Source of the DNA: a virus
Length of the DNA: 64,000 nt
IMG/VR virus record: IMGVR_UViG_3300006925_000007
Coordinates: 32,001 to 96,000 of that record
Reading direction: 5' to 3' (one strand)
This document shows positions 31,366 through 64,000 of this stretch, piece after piece. Each line of letters opens with the position of its first letter. Positions within the stretch are counted from its first letter, which is position 1. A model generated the notes under the pieces. That model was not told where the DNA came from. It ran no database searches and saw nothing but the letters and a program-made list of their open reading frames with translations. The position numbers and the translations under genes are program-made.

Positions 31366-32175
31366 TTAAAATTTAAATGATGCACCGATTGCCGGTGTTA
31401 AACTTTCTGCATCTGTATCATACGATGCTTCTGCATAAAGATCAATTCCCTTGAATGAACTTTTAACTCCTGCACCAACGTGTTGAAGTTTATTATCTTC
31501 GTCGCCGTTAACAAACACTGAAATTACTCCAGCATTTGCATTTACTTCATATCCTAGCTTATCAGCAGAATATGTTGCTGTGCCACCCACTGACATGCTT
31601 GATGTAAGGTCAAGTGATGAACTTACGCCATAAGATTTTGCTTTAGTGTCAGTGTTATAATCAATTGCTGCACCCATTCCGATAACACCGACTTTAAAGT
31701 CGTATGCTGCCTGAACGTTATCAAGATCAGTTACGTCAGTTGATAAACTGTCAAAACCGGCCATTAATGAAAGACCACCTGCTTTAGCCATCACTGATTC
31801 GTTTACCGTAGGATTAGCAAGTGTAGTTGAACCTACTACTTCTAGTCCTGCTGATGGGAACAAGTCGCCTTGCTTACCTAGTGATACTGTTGCACCTGCA
31901 ACTGCTGTTCCGATCTGCCAATCACCTAATGCAATTGTGCCATCTGTAATTTTAAGATCAAACCCACCAAACGCTGGACCAGTTGAATCTAGGTCAAGGT
32001 TAAGTGTTGTGTTACTGACATACTTGCCAGTTGTTGAGTTTTTAGAAACATCAACATCAATAGTTGTAGTCAACGGAAGAACCGGTGATGCCGCTACTGT
32101 GGTTGTTGTTGTTTCGGCCTGTGCTGCAACTGATGTTGCAAACAGAATAGCCAAAACGCTTACTGTTGTTTTCAT
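31366..32175 (-). CDS. Outer-membrane beta-barrel porin-like protein
   Basis: Sec signal peptide (MKTTVSVLAILFATSVAAQA), alternating amphipathic beta strands, and a C-terminal GASFKF BAM-type signal ending in Phe. Confidence 0.75.
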   Translation of the reverse strand: MKTTVSVLAILFATSVAAQAETTTTTVAASPVLPLTTTIDVDVSKNSTTGKYVSNTTLNLDLDSTGPAFGGFDLKITDGTIALGDWQIGTAVAGATVSLGKQGDLFPSAGLEVVGSTTLANPTVNESVMAKAGGLSLMAGFDSLSTDVTDLDNVQAAYDFKVGVIGMGAAIDYNTDTKAKSYGVSSSLDLTSSMSVGGTATYSADKLGYEVNANAGVISVFVNGDEDNKLQHVGAGVKSSFKGIDLYAEASYDTDAESLTPAIGASFKF

Positions 32176-44958: not shown

Positions 44959-45402
44959 TTATTGATCAAGCATTATGCGTTTATAATACTCTGCAGGCCA
45001 ACTATCGTAATAAGATGTTTTATGTAATGATGCTCTGCGTCTAAGTAACTCAGGTCTTATTTGAATTAAAATCAAATCATATATATTTTTAACAAAATGC
45101 CCAGAAGTTTTTGTGCTTTTAAAATACATCAAGTCTGGGTTAAGTTCTTTGATTGTAGTTAGATCAATAGTATCTAAATCTATTTCATCACCGAAGTAAC
45201 ATACACCTACCATTTTTATTCTAGGGTCAAACTCAAGCATAGCTTCAGGATTAGGACCACTGCAATCTATAAATTGTAGTTTATTTTGGACTCTGGCAGT
45301 CTTTGCATACGGACATACAGGATATCCATCATCTTTTAAGGGTTCAACTTTGGTTATCACCCATTCTAAGAAGTCTTTTTGGAATTGTTCAAATTTACTC
45401 AT
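44959..45402 (-). CDS. Hypothetical protein (CPYAK motif)
   Basis: 147-aa ORF; CATAAATA box at 45545-45552. Confidence 0.65.
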   Translation of the reverse strand: MSKFEQFQKDFLEWVITKVEPLKDDGYPVCPYAKTARVQNKLQFIDCSGPNPEAMLEFDPRIKMVGVCYFGDEIDLDTIDLTTIKELNPDLMYFKSTKTSGHFVKNIYDLILIQIRPELLRRRASLHKTSYYDSWPAEYYKRIMLDQ

Positions 45403-45577
45403 AGCTATTCATTATCCATTATGTTGTTGTTTATATCGATGTCTTACGACATCATCATTATCGTATTGCTAACGCAATACTCAATGTATGTTTTTAACTC
45501 TATATTAATATCTATTAACAATAAGAACTAATTAACTACTATGTTATTTATGTTAGCTTATTTCCTAGATTTTTTAT

Positions 45578-45916
45578 TCACACTTAGCTTGTTACAGCCA
45601 AGTGCAAAATATTCATTTCCCGTCAAGAATACCCACTCGTTATAGTAAAACCTTATTAGCACAAGGTAGTGGCGGTTAAGCGATACCACTTTACATACTG
45701 CTTATTAACGCAGAAACACTCTAAGCCATAACGACGACTGTCGAGCTATCCGTAAGTTCCAATTGTCAGGAGAGCTTACTCATTTCGGTTTGTCAAACCA
45801 ATGCATTGACAAGGCACACCAGTTCCAGACACTTATGTATCTTCAAGGTGAGTCGAGCTTATCCCGACCAATCGGAGCCATGTGAGCCTGTGTTAGTTTT
45901 GTGTTAGTTTTGTGTT
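45578..45916 (-). ncRNA. Putative large structured non-coding RNA (family not recognised)
   Basis: ORF-free, GC-elevated island with about ten helices; at least five contain G-U pairs only when read on the minus strand. Confidence 0.6.
45889..45916. repeat. 11-bp tandem repeat TGTGTTAGTTT x2.5
   Basis: Read directly from the sequence. Confidence 0.85.
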
Positions 45917-46015
45917 GGTAGATATTAGCGTTGTAATAGTAATTATGTGATACTTTAATTATCTGCTGATAATAACGTTAAAACGTTATTTCTTGTTATT
46001 AGCATAACATATGTG

Positions 46016-46468: not shown

Positions 46469-46589
46469 TGTTTGTTTCTTTTAATAGTTTTTGCAAAATG
46501 TCATGGCCAATTAAATTCTCATTAATTTTTATTGCAGGCCAAAATTCCCATTGCAACGGCAGTTTCTTTATTTCTGCGTGATCACGCAT
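46446..46589 (-). CDS. Small 47-aa ORF (below the ORF-track cut-off)
   Basis: ATG overlaps the end of gp46; translates to MRDHAEIKKLPLQWEFWPAIKINENLIGHDILQKLLKETNIDKQKKN and fills the gap. Confidence 0.5.
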   Translation of the reverse strand: MRDHAEIKKLPLQWEFWPAIKINENLIGHDILQKLLKETNIDKQKKN

Positions 46590-48357
46590 CAATAACTTCT
46601 AACTCTACGTTAAAAGTAGTGAAACCGTTTTCTTTAGTAACTTGTAAAACATTATCAACTCTACCCACTAGTTCATCTCTATGACTAATAAGTAAAATGT
46701 TTTTATGTCTTTCTCGTTCCATCTTCTTTAATACACCTAATGCACTTTCAACACCAATTGTATCCATTCCGCTGTCAACTAATTCGTCAATACAAATTAA
46801 GTTAATAGGATGATTCATACTTTCGAATACATCACGGAAGCTCCAACTGAGTCCAAGTATAAGTCGATTACGTTCACCACGTGATAAGTTATCAAAATCT
46901 AAGTCTTGTCCTAACTGTGTAATTGTTACAGTCAAGTCGCTTTGGAATTGCACTTCATGTGGTAAGCCTAAACGTGTAATATAATACTCTAATCGAGTAT
47001 TTAAGAATTGTAAGTTTTGTTCAATAATTTTCTTACGAACAAAACTATCCTTGTTTGTAAGTAGCTTCAATAAAAAGTCTTGATGCTCCTTTAGTTCTGT
47101 AAGTCTATTTACCTCTGACCAGTCAACTTCCTGCAAACCAGTGTCTTTTAATGCGGTTATTTGTTCATCATATGGATTTTGCTCATCTTTAATGCGAACT
47201 AACTCTGTTTCAACTAATCCGAGTTTACCTTGATGTTCATACGCTTCTTTAACACTATTGTAATGCATCGTGGGTGCTTTGTTAAGTGGTCCTATGTCAT
47301 TTAATGCATTATTATACTCATTAATCTTAGTATTATAATCATCTATATGCTCTTGGCTTTCTGTTACTGCCTCTGTTTTTTGCTTAACAAGTTCTTCATG
47401 TTTCTCATCATGTAGTTCTTGTCCACATGCATAACATTTATGATCTAACGTATCATTAAGATCCTTTTGTGCTTTGTTTAAGCGTTTTTGTTCTCTATCG
47501 TTAGTGCTGGTTAGTCTTGCTATTTCGGCAGTTAACGTATCTATTTGTTGCTTCTGACTAGTAAATTCTTCATAGTCTGTGTGTGCTTTTAGTTCAACTT
47601 CAATATCAATATGTTGCAAGTTTAACAGCTCTGTTTCTAAGTCTTGCAAGTCTTTATCACGCTTTGATTCCCATACTGTTTGCCTGCGTTCTAAGTCTGA
47701 TATACTTTTACCAATACGTTCGTTTGCTTCTTCTGTGCCACGAATACGATATGTTTCTTCTGTTATTTTGTCTTTACTAATCTTTGTAAGTTCTTTTAGT
47801 ATTTCTGCCTTTTCGCTAAGTTTAGTAATACCTAGTAACTGTTCAATCATATCACGTTGATCAGTTGCTCGCATACTAAGGAAAGGTTCTGTGTAAGTAT
47901 TCAATGCAACAATGTGCTTAAACATTGTATGACCCATACCAATTACACGTTCAATTACACGTTGACTTTCACGGCCTTCGCCTTGCATTTCATCAGTAAT
48001 TTCTCCGTCACTGCCTGCGCCATTAACAAGGAATTTAAAAATGTTTGGCTTACGCCCACGCTCTACACGATACTCAATTCCATTCATTTCAAAGTCAACA
48101 GTAACTAACATACCTTTGTTGTTTGTTTTATTAACTAAGTTATCTTTCTTAATATTATATAATGCGTTGCCAAACAATGCATAACTTAATGCATTAATGA
48201 TTGTTGTCTTACCTGTTCCGTTACGTGACCCATCGCCACCCAAGTCCATGTTGTTACCCAACACAAGTGTTAGTCCTGCATTATCAAAATGGACAGCCTG
48301 TGTGACATTGCCCACACTCATAAAATTTCTTACAGTGATATTTTTAATTCTTAGCAT
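46582..48357 (-). CDS. gp46: Recombination ATPase, Rad50/SbcC-like
   Basis: NGTGKT Walker A, CYAC zinc hook, LSRGE signature, IDELVD Walker B and ISH. Confidence 0.95.
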   Translation of the reverse strand: MLRIKNITVRNFMSVGNVTQAVHFDNAGLTLVLGNNMDLGGDGSRNGTGKTTIINALSYALFGNALYNIKKDNLVNKTNNKGMLVTVDFEMNGIEYRVERGRKPNIFKFLVNGAGSDGEITDEMQGEGRESQRVIERVIGMGHTMFKHIVALNTYTEPFLSMRATDQRDMIEQLLGITKLSEKAEILKELTKISKDKITEETYRIRGTEEANERIGKSISDLERRQTVWESKRDKDLQDLETELLNLQHIDIEVELKAHTDYEEFTSQKQQIDTLTAEIARLTSTNDREQKRLNKAQKDLNDTLDHKCYACGQELHDEKHEELVKQKTEAVTESQEHIDDYNTKINEYNNALNDIGPLNKAPTMHYNSVKEAYEHQGKLGLVETELVRIKDEQNPYDEQITALKDTGLQEVDWSEVNRLTELKEHQDFLLKLLTNKDSFVRKKIIEQNLQFLNTRLEYYITRLGLPHEVQFQSDLTVTITQLGQDLDFDNLSRGERNRLILGLSWSFRDVFESMNHPINLICIDELVDSGMDTIGVESALGVLKKMERERHKNILLISHRDELVGRVDNVLQVTKENGFTTFNVELEVIDA

Positions 48358-48363
48358 ATTATA

Positions 48364-49386
48364 TTAATTACTTAATCCTTGATAAATGTCAATCAACATT
48401 TGTTTCTTGATAGTTTCACTTTGCACAGATTCTAATTGCGACAACACAATTGTATCTACATTTTCCACTTCGATATCAACACCTTGTTGCCAGTCGTTTG
48501 TGTGTTCTTCTTTTTTACTTGGTATCAAACTAATCTCACGTAAGTCATATTGTTTAGCAAATGTTTCTTTAATAAAGTTTGCTTCTTCATATGTAATACC
48601 TACATCAAGTGCCACACGAGCATATGTTTTGTCTGCTAGATATTTTTCTGGGCTATCAATAAGTTTGCTTAATGGCAGTGTGCGATACTTTGGTGCCTCT
48701 GGCCAAGGTAGATAATCTATCTTACCAGCCCAGTCTAAGAACATACAACCTCTATCATCATCCCATGCATCACTAAAGTTATGTGGGAAGCAGTTGCCCG
48801 GATAAATTACATTACCACGTTCTTGTCGTTTGTGAAAGTGTCCACTAAAAACTTTTTCAGGGCCTCTTAGGTCTTCTGCTTTAAGTCCACCATGGTCTGG
48901 CATTTGAACTAATGCATTCATATAAAACTGTGGAAGTTCAAAATGTCCAAACATATATTTGCATTTTACTTCCTTTACTTTCTTCCATTCATCATCAACA
49001 AGCCAGGGGATAAAAGCAACATCATCTTCAATTAACATAGTATCATTTACAATGCGTATGTTAGGATATTCCTTACCCATTGGGATACTATGTATCTCAC
49101 GCTTTTCTCGATAATATAAATCGTGGTTGCCCATAATCATAATAACCTCATCAAAGTTATCATTGAGTCTACGTAGATTACTTACTGTATAATTTAATGT
49201 GCTTACATTAATTGTTGCTCTGTGATGATGCCAATCTCCCAAAAAGAAACATTTTTTAATTCCTCTTTTGTGTGCTTCATCAATCATCCATATAATAAAA
49301 TCTTCACAGTCTTGATTATGTAACCGTGAATTGTTTTTATTACCTAAATGAATGTCAGTGAATATTACTGCTTTATCAAATAGCAT
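48364..49386 (-). CDS. gp47: Recombination nuclease, Mre11/SbcD-like
   Basis: DIHLG, GDW, GNHD, GHFE and SGHFH metallophosphoesterase motifs. Confidence 0.95.
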   Translation of the reverse strand: MLFDKAVIFTDIHLGNKNNSRLHNQDCEDFIIWMIDEAHKRGIKKCFFLGDWHHHRATINVSTLNYTVSNLRRLNDNFDEVIMIMGNHDLYYREKREIHSIPMGKEYPNIRIVNDTMLIEDDVAFIPWLVDDEWKKVKEVKCKYMFGHFELPQFYMNALVQMPDHGGLKAEDLRGPEKVFSGHFHKRQERGNVIYPGNCFPHNFSDAWDDDRGCMFLDWAGKIDYLPWPEAPKYRTLPLSKLIDSPEKYLADKTYARVALDVGITYEEANFIKETFAKQYDLREISLIPSKKEEHTNDWQQGVDIEVENVDTIVLSQLESVQSETIKKQMLIDIYQGLSN

Positions 49387-59225: not shown

Positions 59226-59241
59226 AATAGGATAAGATTTA

Positions 59242-62200
59242 ATGTCTAAGAAAAAATCAGGAAGTTATAAAACTCCAAATATAAAATCGGCAAATTTATT
59301 ACCTCAGGTCTTTAATACTGATGTAAATAAAAAATGGCTTGACAGCACATTAGACCAAATGATTTCAAAGGGTCGCCTAAAGAATGTAGAAGGCTACATT
59401 GGTGATAAATCTGGAAACAATAGATCTCAAGGCGATGTTTATTTAGAAAATGGAAAATTAGATCCTGCAATTGTAATTACAAATACTGATAACAAATTAG
59501 TAGACGCAATTACAATGGACGACATTGCAAATGCAATTAACATAAACTTTAGCGAATACAATTATAATACAGCATACGCAACAAAATCATATAGTTACAG
59601 ACCTCCTATTAACATACACAAGTTTGTAGACTATCAAAATTATGCGTGGGTTGATCAAATGCCTACATACGAAAGTATTAGAACACTTGATGCTGCAACT
59701 GTAGGGACAGTAACATCGGGCTCATCATATCCTGCAAACCCATCACATGGTGATTACTTTGCACTTAATGATGGAGTAAGCACAAAAACTTATCAATGGG
59801 ATGACAATGTTAAAGTTTGGCAACCAAGCGGAACAACAGATGCAATTTATACTAGGAACAATAATAATGCAGGATTTACAAGTGTAGTTAATCCAGTAGA
59901 AATGTTAACTGATCAATTATCTTATACAATTATAGATAACAACAATACATTTGATCTAGCAGACCAAATGCTTATTAAATTTGTTGGCGATGGATGGCAT
60001 TCAGATTCACGCACAAAAACATATCTTGTTACAGGAACAGGCAAAGAGCTTAAACTGATCAACATATATAGCTGGCCAATGCGACAGACATTATATCCGG
60101 AGACAACAAAAACTACAGTAACAGTAGGTGGAATATGGGATAAAAGTAAAATAACTGATGTTGATCCTAACAAATCAAGTTCATTATATAGTCCTGCCAC
60201 AACACCTAGTGAGATGAAGGGAAGTTATAATGTAGACGCTAATCGCTTACCAATATTTGATGGATTTGTATTTACAAACGAAGAGTCAAACAAAACACAA
60301 TTTATAGAAGGAGAGCTAATATCATTCTCAGATAGCTGGAGCATTATCGATCCCAATGGGATAAGTCAGCCAATTCTACCCGATGCTGACTATCATAAGA
60401 TATGGTATACAACAGTAGACAATGTAACAGGTGATATTGATTTTATATTAATTGTTGATGCAAAGCAAATAGGAACAAATCCTGGCAAGTGGGAACAGTT
60501 TATTGTGCCGGGCACAGACGAAACAGTATGGGCAAAATATAAAGATAGACTAGAAGGATTTGATACACAAAATTACGACAAGTCTACAGTAATCTTTACT
60601 GAAAAAGATTATCAAGTAATAGAAACAGATAGCCCATTTAGAACCGCATGGAGCAGAAACAACAAATGGACAGATATTGATACTCTTAAAAAGGTCAACG
60701 AACTTATATACGGTGGTATTAATATTGAAGCATTAACTGATACAAAGTTTATTGCAAAGAGACCTATTATTGAGTTTGACGGCAAATTAAATATGTGGCA
60801 GTGGGCAAATTACTCACCAGACTTAGGCGATAGTCATTGGACTGGTGTAATTGACTTTATGGTTAAACCTATTGGTGATTATGCACCAACAGAATCAGCT
60901 GGACCAGTCTACTCGTTAGATTTAAGTAAGGTTGAAATAAAAGGTAACCAGAGAATTGCATTCACAGAAGGTGACTTATCAAATAAAATTTGGGAAGTAG
61001 GTTCTAATGGAGTATTAACAGAAGGTATTTCTTTAACAGAAAATAATTGTGCATATGTAAGGGAAGCATTACCGGATACTGAAGATAAGATTTGGTCAAA
61101 TAGTGATGTGTTCTTTGATGGAACAAAATGGAGCACTGGGCAACAACGCACAACTATTAACCAAATGCCACTGTTTAAACTTTATACAACTGGTGGATTA
61201 GCAGTAGAACAACTAGAAGGCGGCAAGTTTCAAGGTAGTAGACTTTTTAACTACAAAATAGGAACAGGCACAACCGATCCTGAATTAAGCATACCATTAT
61301 CATATAAAGACATTAATGGCATTGGTGAGTATCAGTTTGAAAATTATTTGTTTACTGAAACACAATTTCAAAGTATTACATCTCAATTTAATAAAGACAC
61401 AAATTACCATAGACAGATAATAGGACAAAACTTATTTAAAGTTAATGATAAATTAACTAATCTATACAAGCAAAGTGAAGAAATTAGTGGAGCAGAAACA
61501 TTAGAAACATATGATGTAGATAGTGTAAGTTCAGACTTTACAATTAATACTGGACACAGTTCATGGAGAGCAGATAGACGTATTGCATTACATCAGCAAA
61601 ATAAAGAATGTGTAGTAACAGAAATACAAAACGGTGTTTACTTAGACAAAACAAATGTAGACCACACAAACATATATGTAGGTAAAAATATACCTGTTGT
61701 ATTTAACAACTTATTGGAAACTGGTGATGTTAGATTTAAAACTGTAGCTGGTGTTGACATTGAAACAACTCCACAAGCAGGTGTAACTGTAACAAGAAGT
61801 GGAAATGATATTACCTTATCACTTACTACATACAGTAGCAAAATTATTATTGACCCAGCAGATGCAACATTAACAAATGACTATACAATTATACCACTTG
61901 ACAACTATGATAGTATTCAGCATACAGTAGAAGTTAATGGTAAGCAGTTAAGTCCTAATAATTATACAATCAATGCAGATACAATTGTTATACCAAAAGA
62001 AAAACTAAATGTAGATGATGTTGTTGATTTAAAATATGCAAGTAATAATAATAAAAACAGAACCACAAACCTGTCATTACCTAAAACTTTAAAACATAAT
62101 CCAAATAACGAAATATTAAAAACTTTTACAATGGGTGAAACATTAACACATTGGCAAGACATAATAACTTCTACTCCAGGATTTGAAGGTGATGTATTTG

Positions 62201-64000
62201 GTGTCAACAATTATGATGCAATTAATAAGCAACATTACTTTGGTGGTCAAATTTTCATTCATACTGATTTAAGTATTGTGCATGATGCCTTGTATGCCAA
62301 CGATTCAATTAACATTACAAACGCATTAGCAACTACCGGAGAAGATTGGGATAACTTTAAAAATAGATTTAGAAGTCAAGTAGTTAGGTTATACGAAGCT
62401 AACACTTATAAAAGTATTAACGACTTAGTTGATGATACAATTAAAGCAATTACAGTTACTAGACAGGGCGGAGAATTATTTAAAACATCTAACATGGTTT
62501 ATACAAATAGTTCTCGATTAGAAAAATTTGTTTGGACAGATATCAATAACAATCCTAGAATATTTTTAAAAGATAATATTCACAGCGATGACAACATACA
62601 AGATCATGTTTATGTTTACTTGACAGACTGGAATGGAATCAAACTAGAAACTCGATTATTAATTAAGGATGTTGACTATAGGCAAGCAGGAAATTTAATT
62701 GAATTTACATTTCAGCCAATTGCAACACCAACTGAAGTTAAACCAACAATTATAGTGCATCATCACGCAATGGATAATGCCTCATATGTTCCACCAAGTT
62801 TAACAAAACTTAAACTTACCTCTGGTATGATTCCAACATGGGACACTTCAACGAATACATTAATCGGACACGATGGAACACAGTGGAACTTAAGATCCAC
62901 TGCAAAGTTAATTGATATGAACTCTGAATCATTTGATGTTATAAATGCATGTCAGTTTGAATTAGAAAAAAGAATTTATTCAGGATTAGTTATTAGTGAT
63001 CGTATTAATACAGATGACGCATGTGTTGAAAGTTTACAGTATGGATTTACTTCTAAGTTTATACCAAACGCAACAAGAGAAACATGGTATACATTAGAAA
63101 CAATTAATGATGCAATGTATAAATCATTCACGCAGTGGAAAGAAAAAAATAAACGTAGCGATATAAAAATTAATTATGATTCACTTGATGTAGATACTTG
63201 GAACTTTAGTTCGGTTGCACCGGGTGGTCGATTTGGAACTAATAAACTTCCTGGTCAGTGGAAAGGTGCATACGAAGTTTTATTTGGAACAAGCACCCCA
63301 CACTCAACACCGTGGCAAATGTTAGGATATGCATTTAAACCATCATGGTGGTTTGCAAAATATAGCTGGACTGATGTAACAAAACGTGCTGCACTTATAA
63401 GTGCATTAAAACGTGGACAAGTATCAACTGACAGACAAGACATAGAATGGGCAAACCATATGTGGGATTGGGATAATCATTGCCCAGTTAATACATATGG
63501 CGCATTAGTGTCAATCGAAACAGTATTAGATCCTAACAACAATATTACAAATGAAGGAAAGCAAAAACGTTTTACGTTTGGAGATTATGCAGGATTAGAA
63601 GCTGAATGGAGAAATAGTGCAAGCGGTAAAGCTGCATTAATTGATGCAATTGTAAAATTAAATCCAACAAAAGCATCCAGTATATTCTATTCGCCTAGTT
63701 TACGAGTTACTAAAAAGCAACTAGATTATTTAAACAAAGACAATTTAAATACTTACACAACATCTTCTATTGCAACACCAGGTAAAGTATATGGCAGAGT
63801 AGTTTCTGATGTTGAAATTAAAACAATTGATAGATTTTATACAAATACATTTGTAAGATTAGTTGGAGCTGATAGTGTTGATGCTGAAGTTACATTAGCA
63901 TTTGACAACAGACAATCAAGTTACCCAGAAATATTTGGCACCGCAGGAGATGACGGTAAGCGTTATGTAGTTGGAGCAAGTTTATCACAGCGTGGTAGAA
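59242..64000 (+). CDS. Giant virion/baseplate protein (partial, >1580 aa; absent from the ORF track because there is no stop in the window)
   Basis: ATG at 59242 gives MSKKKSGSYKTPNIKSANLLPQVFNTDVNKKWLDSTLDQM...; follows gp6, and the ORF track lists no closed plus-strand ORF in this span. Confidence 0.8.
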   Translation, partial: MSKKKSGSYKTPNIKSANLLPQVFNTDVNKKWLDSTLDQMISKGRLKNVEGYIGDKSGNNRSQGDVYLENGKLDPAIVITNTDNKLVDAITMDDIANAININFSEYNYNTAYATKSYSYRPPINIHKFVDYQNYAWVDQMPTYESIRTLDAATVGTVTSGSSYPANPSHGDYFALNDGVSTKTYQWDDNVKVWQPSGTTDAIYTRNNNNAGFTSVVNPVEMLTDQLSYTIIDNNNTFDLADQMLIKFVGDGWHSDSRTKTYLVTGTGKELKLINIYSWPMRQTLYPETTKTTVTVGGIWDKSKITDVDPNKSSSLYSPATTPSEMKGSYNVDANRLPIFDGFVFTNEESNKTQFIEGELISFSDSWSIIDPNGISQPILPDADYHKIWYTTVDNVTGDIDFILIVDAKQIGTNPGKWEQFIVPGTDETVWAKYKDRLEGFDTQNYDKSTVIFTEKDYQVIETDSPFRTAWSRNNKWTDIDTLKKVNELIYGGINIEALTDTKFIAKRPIIEFDGKLNMWQWANYSPDLGDSHWTGVIDFMVKPIGDYAPTESAGPVYSLDLSKVEIKGNQRIAFTEGDLSNKIWEVGSNGVLTEGISLTENNCAYVREALPDTEDKIWSNSDVFFDGTKWSTGQQRTTINQMPLFKLYTTGGLAVEQLEGGKFQGSRLFNYKIGTGTTDPELSIPLSYKDINGIGEYQFENYLFTETQFQSITSQFNKDTNYHRQIIGQNLFKVNDKLTNLYKQSEEISGAETLETYDVDSVSSDFTINTGHSSWRADRRIALHQQNKECVVTEIQNGVYLDKTNVDHTNIYVGKNIPVVFNNLLETGDVRFKTVAGVDIETTPQAGVTVTRSGNDITLSLTTYSSKIIIDPADATLTNDYTIIPLDNYDSIQHTVEVNGKQLSPNNYTINADTIVIPKEKLNVDDVVDLKYASNNNKNRTTNLSLPKTLKHNPNNEILKTFTMGETLTHWQDIITSTPGFEGDVFGVNNYDAINKQHYFGGQIFIHTDLSIVHDALYANDSINITNALATTGEDWDNFKNRFRSQVVRLYEANTYKSINDLVDDTIKAITVTRQGGELFKTSNMVYTNSSRLEKFVWTDINNNPRIFLKDNIHSDDNIQDHVYVYLTDWNGIKLETRLLIKDVDYRQAGNLIEFTFQPIATPTEVKPTIIVHHHAMDNASYVPPSLTKLKLTSGMIPTWDTSTNTLIGHDGTQWNLRSTAKLIDMNSESFDVINACQFELEKRIYSGLVISDRINTDDACVESLQYGFTSKFIPNATRETWYTLETINDAMYKSFTQWKEKNKRSDIKINYDSLDVDTWNFSSVAPGGRFGTNKLPGQWKGAYEVLFGTSTPHSTPWQMLGYAFKPSWWFAKYSWTDVTKRAALISALKRGQVSTDRQDIEWANHMWDWDNHCPVNTYGALVSIETVLDPNNNITNEGKQKRFTFGDYAGLEAEWRNSASGKAALIDAIVKLNPTKASSIFYSPSLRVTKKQLDYLNKDNLNTYTTSSIATPGKVYGRVVSDVEIKTIDRFYTNTFVRLVGADSVDAEVTLAFDNRQSSYPEIFGTAGDDGKRYVVGASLSQRGR

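Follow-up and report, generated by a model that had tools for sequence, protein, structure and literature searches.

When a large RNA combines a pseudoknot with loop contacts over long range and with many unpaired bases that do not vary, it has usually proved to be a ribozyme, the core of a ribonucleoprotein, a guide RNA or a self-assembling cage, and to our knowledge few such classes are still undiscovered. Omega RNA, the former HEARO motif, serves IscB/TnpB, bridge RNA serves IS110, and phage group I introns of the T4 td / I-TevI type carry genes for GIY-YIG endonucleases. GOLLD, ROOL and OLE are ornate large RNAs of bacteria and phages, 580–800 nucleotides (nt) in length, whose function is not known (PMC12286853), and T4-type phages prime replication from transcripts (PMC3016281). 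Here we describe a structured RNA element of ~340 nt, encoded on the minus strand of a 64,000-nt stretch of viral DNA (the window; positions 32,001 to 96,000 of IMG/VR record IMGVR_UViG_3300006925_000007). The window is part of a 112-kb viral contig whose completeness is estimated at ~30%; the whole genome would then measure a few hundred kb. The element has a defined polarity at the RNA level, is independent of any single neighbouring gene, and occurs both in phages and in bacterial mobile DNA. Comparison of its homologues leads us to lean towards reading it as a new family of stand-alone, highly structured "ornate" noncoding RNA (ncRNA), in which the core would be a scaffold and the twin direct repeats would act by base pairing.

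Like GOLLD, ROOL and OLE, the element is large, conserved and non-coding, has an intricate fold with loop-loop contacts, is found in phages and sporadically in bacteria, and was discovered by comparative genomics. It differs from them in showing no similarity of sequence or model, in being shorter, and in its marine Gram-negative-type settings, and it has covarying direct repeats, which are not known in these RNAs. When the window, copies from 10 distant phage loci and copies from 4 bacterial loci were searched against Rfam, at the gathering score and at permissive thresholds (E ≤ 10, or E ≤ 1 for copies from bacteria), no family matched, GOLLD, ROOL and OLE included. Nor did the Rfam covariance models of RNase P, SRP, 6S and other universal RNAs match. 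ARAGORN, also when run with -m, found no tRNA or tmRNA, no frame encodes a tag peptide ending in AA-stop, and the Rfam tmRNA models gave no match. An earlier reading of the letters alone (the original prediction) had proposed that a large ncRNA of the phage lies here, perhaps one whose class is new, with no tRNA, tmRNA, RNase P or intron core in it. This proposal was borne out on each point tested; the pseudoknot, the kissing loop, the covarying direct repeats, the bacterial copies and the replaceability of the GIY-YIG neighbour go beyond it. The RNA may be included, without a name, in a published IMG/VR catalogue of >10,000 candidate viral RNAs (PMC10690425).

A minus-strand fold supported by covariation

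The minus strand of the element folds with an energy of -96 kcal/mol (z = -2.73), which none of 100 shuffled sequences equalled, whereas for the plus strand (z = -0.93) 21 of 100 shuffles were as good. From 39 distinct copies RNAalifold predicted 68 pairs, 32 of them with compensatory changes. When a structure built by hand was applied to 63 representatives, 85.8% of cells were paired compared with 73.8% after shuffling, a level that none of 500 shuffles reached, and 54 of 76 pairs changed on both sides (slid controls, 33–42%). For the core of 152 positions, 93.6% of cells were paired as against 32–43% for slid partners, and 24 of 34 pairs changed on both sides. Covariation on the minus strand is abundant, and the support from comparison lies well above the level of chance. 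G-U pairs are frequent and conserved (the U-G pair of H8 is present in 57 of 58 sequences), which indicates that the folded molecule is the minus-strand RNA, in agreement with the polarity proposed from the window alone. The GC content of the element (0.41–0.455) exceeds that of the adjoining sequence (0.27–0.33), as had also been noted.

The helices listed in the original prediction are present in the sequence where it placed them, and most are backed by compensatory changes. The third hairpin of the junction (H9) was the one that had to be amended: its CCUU/AAGG stem is supported, the outer GU/AU pairs are not, and part of its loop pairs with the loop of H4 instead. The coordinates of all helices are collected in Table 1. 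Three hairpins, H7, H8 and H9, form a junction closed by the long-range helix H6, and helix X crosses H6, creating a pseudoknot. Helix X and the contact between the loops of H4 and H9 were recovered by an all-against-all search for stacked covarying columns. The latter contact is a kissing loop in which GCAU of the H4 loop pairs with GUGC of the H9 loop; it is paired in 91% of cells, and its 3 core pairs all covary. Four lineages (L055, L021, L057 and L145) lack both the H4 hairpin and the GUGC in the loop of H9. Unpaired parts of the core are conserved as well: the joiners UGCGUU, GCAG, UAA and AACCGC show no variation, and H5 contains an invariant, asymmetric internal loop (GCUCU / AAC). The 3' hairpin H11 is nearly invariant, has many G-U pairs and is not followed by a U-tract. 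The core and the 3' hairpin are kept in distant phage groups and in bacteria, where the 5' domain (H2–H4) is swapped for other sequence; H2 is specific to phage clade 1. A UGG/ACC pairing 3' of H4 was dropped from the model, as 28% of cells pair and the variant suggested by RNAalifold covaries at one pair only.

Twin direct repeats change in concert

The 3' module contains a sequence of 6–12 nt that is present twice, with one copy (R1, in or next to H10) on the 5' side of H11 and the other (R2) on its 3' side, 10–13 nt from H11 in all lineages. In local folds ~56% of R1 and ~77% of R2 is unpaired. The sequence of the repeat differs between lineages: we counted 24 heptamer variants, among them GGGAAAU, UGUCAAG, UGCCAAG, UGGUAAU and GCGAAAA. 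The two copies change in concert: across these variants they agree at 6.37 of 7 positions within a genome, compared with 4.71 ± 0.11 when copies are shuffled across genomes. The repeat is kept in all three clades of the element, that is, in the phage copies and in the two bacterial clades described below; the GC-rich clade carries GUGGAAUGCC twice and locus L284 carries GGUAAG twice.

In the loci searched, which extend up to 14.6 kb, the variable sequence matches only R2 of its own locus, and its exact reverse complement is absent. The only complement of R in evidence is the antisense strand of the locus itself. The simplest physical explanation of a covarying repeat would be one complementary strand that the two copies have in common, or that R1 encounters as RNA and R2 as DNA; action of the repeat by base pairing is suggested by its concerted change.

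Other explanations of the repeat were rejected. The unit from R1 to R2 measures 49–77 nt, and in 47 of 63 cases its length does not divide by three, so that it cannot be a coding template read over and over; a rolling-circle template of the DRT2/Neo type would have a conserved open concatemer frame, and none is present. R2 is likewise not the boundary of the element or a target-site duplication, because in the GC-rich clade homology continues for ~75 nt beyond it.

A core gene of uncultured marine phages

A scan of IMG/VR with gp46 yielded 80 related loci and a scan with the 147-amino-acid (aa) open reading frame (ORF) next to the element yielded 9 more; blastn located the element in ~70 of these, at 70–95% identity and in the same position. 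A pattern derived from the invariant core matched at least 117 stretches, and when pattern-scan loci were checked with nhmmer the element was confirmed in all but two. Overall it is present in at least ~180 IMG/VR loci at 70–95% identity. Where the flank downstream of gp46 is at least 2.5 kb long, which holds for 50 loci, every locus carries it, following gp47, gp46 and a small nuclease gene, and it is kept in phages whose gp46 is only 52–64% identical. The RNA is a core gene of one lineage of uncultured marine T4-like/jumbo phages. The nearest named relatives by gp46 are the PA5oct-type, Atu_ph07 and Phosso jumbo phages (46–48% identity); in PA5oct-type phages convergent genes follow directly after gp46. 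Among 50,697 phage records searched with blastn no cultured phage matched the element, and the covariance model of the RNA found no match in the genomes of Melnitz and PAC2.

Copies in bacterial mobile DNA

Scanning 185,579 species genomes with the core pattern returned 2 true matches, one in the complete chromosome of Candidatus Njordibacter sp. Uisw_056 and one on a GC-rich 3-kb contig binned with a Flavobacteriales metagenome-assembled genome. None of 150 other genomes of Njordibacter's order has the RNA. The Njordibacter copy lies in a genomic island between two TRAP-transporter operons and is flanked by a divergent gene for a 182-aa serine invertase and by a 126-aa helix-turn-helix (HTH)-like ORF. 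The end of the island (L276 1086-3932, 5605-6105) encodes two tyrosine integrases and an excisionase-like HTH_17 protein, and the island also contains an inverse-autotransporter gene and large ORFs without family.

Another 18 copies, which fall into two clades, came from scanning metagenomes with a pattern adjusted to the variants seen in bacteria. In clade 2 (GC 0.42) the order is recombinase, RNA and an ORF of 126–128 aa. At two of its loci (L292 and L296) a 185-aa tyrosine recombinase replaces the serine enzyme, and the RNA block is still 84–94% identical. The exchange amounts to a cassette swap: in these related marine bacterial islands the recombinase slot, filled by the 182-aa serine invertase at L275 12571-13119 (-) and by the 185-aa tyrosine enzyme at L292 3780-4337 (-) and L296 3172-3729 (-), lies between conserved flanks, a 92-nt block on one side and the RNA block on the other. 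Clade 3 (GC 0.56–0.59) is an RNA-only block of ~625 nt with 91–98% identity and differing neighbours (CN hydrolase, MFS transporter, insertion sequence transposase). Both clades have a common upstream motif ending in TAAATAC, which resembles the phage motif CUAAYAYAGG and may be a promoter element. An invertible switch was rejected for the bacterial copies, as no shared inverted repeats flank the RNA.

Gene order and the replaceable nuclease

In the phage loci the gene immediately upstream of the RNA mostly encodes a SegE-type GIY-YIG nuclease, as it does in the window, and in two groups (L148 and L169) a PDDEXK_15 nuclease in the same slot (Table 1). At L148 a DHO_dh-like gene lies between gp46 and the nuclease gene. 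Enzymes of the Seg type are established free-standing homing endonucleases in T4. The GIY-YIG protein has no DNA-binding domain and belongs to phrog_447, a family of stand-alone phage proteins of ~148 aa. It shares 78% identity with a hypothetical protein encoded by Methylophilales phage Melnitz-3 (Kyanoviridae; L207 4498-4938), which sits in another context, after a ribonucleotide reductase gene, in a genome without a copy of the RNA. Across distant phage groups GIY-YIG is mostly better conserved (56–80%) than gp46 (52–71%, identities above 71% stemming from truncated matches). These values and the Melnitz match suggest that a homing endonuclease has recently passed horizontally between marine phages. 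Being replaceable, better conserved than core genes and present elsewhere without the RNA, the nuclease behaves like a free-standing homing endonuclease. It is therefore probably one that uses the conserved RNA gene as a landing site rather than an obligate partner of the RNA, and its slot looks like a hot spot for homing endonucleases. The locus would thereby show unrelated homing nucleases converging on a conserved RNA gene.

Downstream of the RNA the 147-aa ORF is present in the closest phage group only. Elsewhere the downstream gene is unrelated (NT5C-like, or a 126-aa HTH-like ORF) or absent: several phage groups have no ORF of 40 aa or more that begins within ~330 nt downstream, and the next recognised gene is a convergent gp26-like baseplate gene. 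Convergent baseplate genes also come after the 147-aa ORF in the window.

The limits of the element were set by conservation. Its 5' leader contains the motif CUAAYAYAGG (45896-45887), which includes the last of two CTAACAC copies and has a CUAA core that is invariant in the first phage alignment; the rest of the window shows no enrichment of the motif. It may act as a -10-like element or form part of a 5' leader that stays single-stranded. At the other end, R2 is closely followed by a box, CATAAATA, that resembles the T4 late promoter, TATAAATA. The 147-aa gene downstream probably has its promoter in this box, which would also be where the RNA unit ends on the 3' side. No intrinsic terminator was called for the element.

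Table 1. Positions of the RNA element, its helices and repeats, and the adjoining genes (window coordinates unless a locus is named)
Feature	Position	Strand	Remarks
gp47-like phosphoesterase gene	48364-49386	minus	
gp46-like ATPase gene	46582-48357	minus	
SegE-type GIY-YIG nuclease gene, 150 aa	46016-46468	minus	Pfam PF19835, 5e-34; neighbour, outside the RNA
ORF-free stretch	45403-46015	minus	
Whole RNA element (5' leader, 5' domain, pseudoknotted core, 3' module through R2)	45560-45907	minus	Limits from blastn/nhmmer conservation and alignments
CA-rich leader	45887-45907	minus	CTAACAC twice, 11 nt apart (45907-45901, 45896-45890)
H2, hairpin GGUCGGG/CUCGACU	45851-45869	minus	Closing pair switches between GC and CG in 15/39 sequences
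H3, CACC/GGUG around H3b, AGAUAC/GUGUCU	45817-45850	minus	5/7 inner pairs change on both sides
H4, hairpin GUCAA/UUGAC	45792-45810	minus	Loop bases GCAU (45804-45801) pair with H9 loop
H5, GUAAG/CUUAC and UCC/GGA	45752-45779	minus	98% paired; 6/8 pairs change on both sides
Helix X, GCUC (45746-45743) with GAGU (45721-45718)	45718-45746	minus	91.8% paired; 4/4 pairs change on both sides
H6, long-range helix CGUUAUGG (45733-45726) / CUAUAACG (45645-45638)	45638-45733	minus	7/8 pairs covary
H7, CUGC/GCAG	45713-45698	minus	Nearly no variation
H8, AGUGGU/GCCACU	45690-45668	minus	4/6 pairs covary
H9, CCUU/AAGG	45666-45651	minus	3/4 pairs covary; loop GUGC at 45662-45659
H10, variable hairpin (UAUUC/GAAUA in the window)	45610-45631	minus	Carries R1
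R1, GGAAAU, in or next to H10	45620-45615	minus	
H11, 13-bp 3' hairpin UUUGCACUUGGCU/AGCUAAGUGUGAA	45577-45608	minus	95.9% paired; 7/13 pairs change on both sides
R2, GGAAAU, mostly single-stranded	45560-45565	minus	
Late-promoter-like box CATAAATA, shortly after R2	45545-45552	minus	Recurs there in close relatives
147-aa ORF	44959-45402	minus	No Pfam family
PDDEXK_15 nuclease gene, 172-176 aa, in GIY-YIG slot, locus L148	5733-6263	plus	
PDDEXK_15 nuclease gene, 172-176 aa, in GIY-YIG slot, locus L169	1842-2360	minus	

Possible functions of the RNA

If the element is a stand-alone ornate ncRNA, as we lean towards thinking, its core, on which the lineage-variable 5' domain docks through the loop-loop contact, would be a scaffold for a protein, or for RNA-only assembly or catalysis. 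The 3' module would display one lineage-specific sequence twice, R1 in or near the H10 loop and R2 in the tail, and the twin copies would base-pair with one complementary nucleic acid, the sole complement found being the antisense DNA strand or transcript of the locus. Such an RNA would act in trans, and the small phage nucleases would be homing endonucleases landing at its gene and not its partners. As a core gene of an abundant marine phage lineage that has crossed into bacteria, the RNA probably serves infection, or the life of mobile elements, in some general way. Concerted change of direct repeats is rarely seen, and this signature makes the question of function testable; Ca. Njordibacter sp. 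Uisw_056 is a cultured carrier that offers a route to experiments.

Several observations weigh against this reading. Kinship among the sequences inflates the shuffle tests of the fold. A search within ±700 nt for a full-length complement of R, allowing Watson-Crick and G-U pairs, found none, and column covariation revealed no third strand for R; among partial matches binned by alignment column, only one to the 5' strand of H11 stood out, and it was weak and not universal. A DNA-cutting or DNA-joining enzyme adjoins the RNA in two of the three clades, and could be there as more than a landing-site effect. Finally, in some close relatives the nuclease ORF reaches the start of the RNA without a separate promoter region, so that there the RNA may be made by processing of an operon transcript.

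A bolder proposal, which we make tentatively and regard as rather unlikely, is that phages and mobile elements have an undescribed system for targeting nucleic acids, with the RNA as its programmable specificity subunit and with a conserved scaffold that presents two identical, rapidly co-evolving guide-like segments. If so, two copies of one complementary sequence would be brought together or marked, for instance by a symmetric bridge in recombination, in replication priming or in interference.

A covarying direct repeat is also what pairing of the RNA with the antisense DNA strand predicts, and it could point to a primer of a replication origin in the style of ColE1 RNA II or the T4 R-loop: R1 would pair with the template at R2, and a persistent RNA–DNA hybrid in the AT-rich tract would prime synthesis. 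In RNA II an upstream segment that pairs with the template near the priming site would look like a direct repeat, and the identity of R1 and R2 has this form at the level of sequence. The arrangement of the locus agrees with such a primer in that R2 lies at a fixed distance from a stable hairpin without a U-tract, an AT-rich tract comes next, and evenly spaced CTAACAC repeats lie upstream. In ColE1 RNA II, with a structured RNA of ~550 nt (PMC5043065), and at T4 origin R-loops (PMC3016281), a structured transcript is likewise followed by an AT-rich stretch; T4 origins combine a promoter with an AT-rich unwinding element, and oriE has iterons (PMC3016281). Bacterial copies, moreover, lie beside small resolvase-type recombinases, as plasmid origins often do. 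We nevertheless consider an origin primer unlikely. The element has no homology to these systems, and T4 R-loops require no specific RNA sequence or structure (PMC3016281). The GC-skew minimum of the window is at ~50 kb, ~4.5 kb from the RNA, and tracks the direction of transcription. The GC-rich copies stand alone among metabolic genes of bacterial chromosomes, with no replicon genes nearby, and nascent R2 RNA would itself pair with the template, leaving R1 without a clear need.

The small enzymes next to the RNA invite comparison with omega RNA and bridge RNA. The RNA would then be a guide or cofactor of the adjacent DNA-cutting or DNA-joining enzyme, which would bind the core and take its specificity from R1 and R2. 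The likeness extends to a conserved scaffold with a short, variable, lineage-specific segment that matches its own locus, to mobile DNA, and to the enzymes themselves: a nuclease of 140–180 aa, consisting of the catalytic domain only, always lies directly upstream in phages, and a recombinase of 182–185 aa adjoins the RNA in the Njordibacter-like clade. However, the neighbour is not constant, as GIY-YIG, PD-(D/E)XK (PDDEXK_15), serine recombinase or tyrosine recombinase, four unrelated families, or no such enzyme may occupy the slot. The RNA block keeps 84–94% identity across the exchange of serine for tyrosine enzymes, the GC-rich clade has no such neighbour, and the close GIY-YIG homologue in the Melnitz phage does without the RNA. 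Compared through Rfam only, omega and bridge RNAs differ further in serving a single effector family, and here the variable segment is duplicated, just 6–12 nt long and without a target found beyond its own locus, and R2 is internal to the conserved block. We think a dedicated enzyme subunit quite improbable.

Regulation in cis seems more doubtful still. The RNA would be a leader, riboswitch or attenuator of the downstream gene, with R1 and R2 competing for one partner strand as a toggle. In many loci a downstream ORF does lie on the strand of the RNA, and at L015 and L137 the minimum-energy fold pairs the 5' strand of H10 with R2 in place of R1. The segment upstream of R1 also pairs slightly better with its own R1 than with those of other loci (-4.18 versus -3.54 kcal/mol, p ~0.015), but the same comparison for R2 is not significant (p ~0.065), and the toggle is weakly supported. 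A leader of one gene family was rejected, since the downstream genes are unrelated or none was detected within ~330 nt, a late-promoter-like box stands between the RNA and the next gene, and there is no terminator; with its 340 nt, its pseudoknot and its kissing loop, the RNA also goes beyond known aptamers.

Least probable is a degenerate or novel self-splicing intron or mobile ribozyme tied to the homing endonuclease gene, with R1 and R2 as its excision or insertion junctions: the phage setting, the homing-type GIY-YIG gene beside a structured, pseudoknotted RNA (as in td/I-TevI introns), movement between phages and bacteria with a GC-rich block in varied contexts, and a unit flanked by direct repeats would suit it, but group I and II models, including Rfam Intron_gpI for the P3–P9 core, gave no match at thresholds of E ≤ 10 (window region) and E ≤ 1 (copies in bacteria), the helix order misfits the P3/P7 topology, in which P4–P6 is nested within P3 (only ~9 nt separate the 5' strands of helix X and H6, and neither helix encloses the 5' domain), the fold does not include the endonuclease gene, no gene is interrupted (the flanking ORFs are complete with their own stops and starts and differ between lineages), the R1–R2 unit is missing from no locus, and the homology past R2 in the GC-rich clade runs counter to a junction there.

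Other features of the window

Between the stop codon of the GIY-YIG gene and the RNA, 64 nt (45937-46000, minus strand) form a separate conserved segment (~80%) in many relatives. This segment contains a hairpin, AAUAACG/CGUUAUU, and the motif AUCAGCWAAUAAUUAAAGCAUCAGAUAAUUA, and may comprise a terminator plus a phage promoter for the RNA. It is absent in relatives with a nuclease ORF of 181–183 aa.

On the other side of the element, the 147-aa ORF matches no PADLOC family, and its PHROG matches are weak and partial; its conservation in the closest phage group is 65–84%. The AT-rich spacer immediately upstream of it contains two perfect Watson-Crick hairpins 9 nt apart, GUAUUGC-GUUA-GCAAUAC and GAUGUC-GUAA-GACAUC (45425-45480, minus strand), and comparable hairpins with GUUA/GUAA loops are found at the same place in distant relatives.

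The element had been described as the only long ORF-free gap in the window. This proved incorrect: gaps of 696–1044 nt (counting ORFs of at least 60 aa) lie at 59.2–63.3 kb. The region 59226-63254 holds several stretches of 500–1000 nt without such an ORF and without tRNA, which may contain small early genes or further RNAs.

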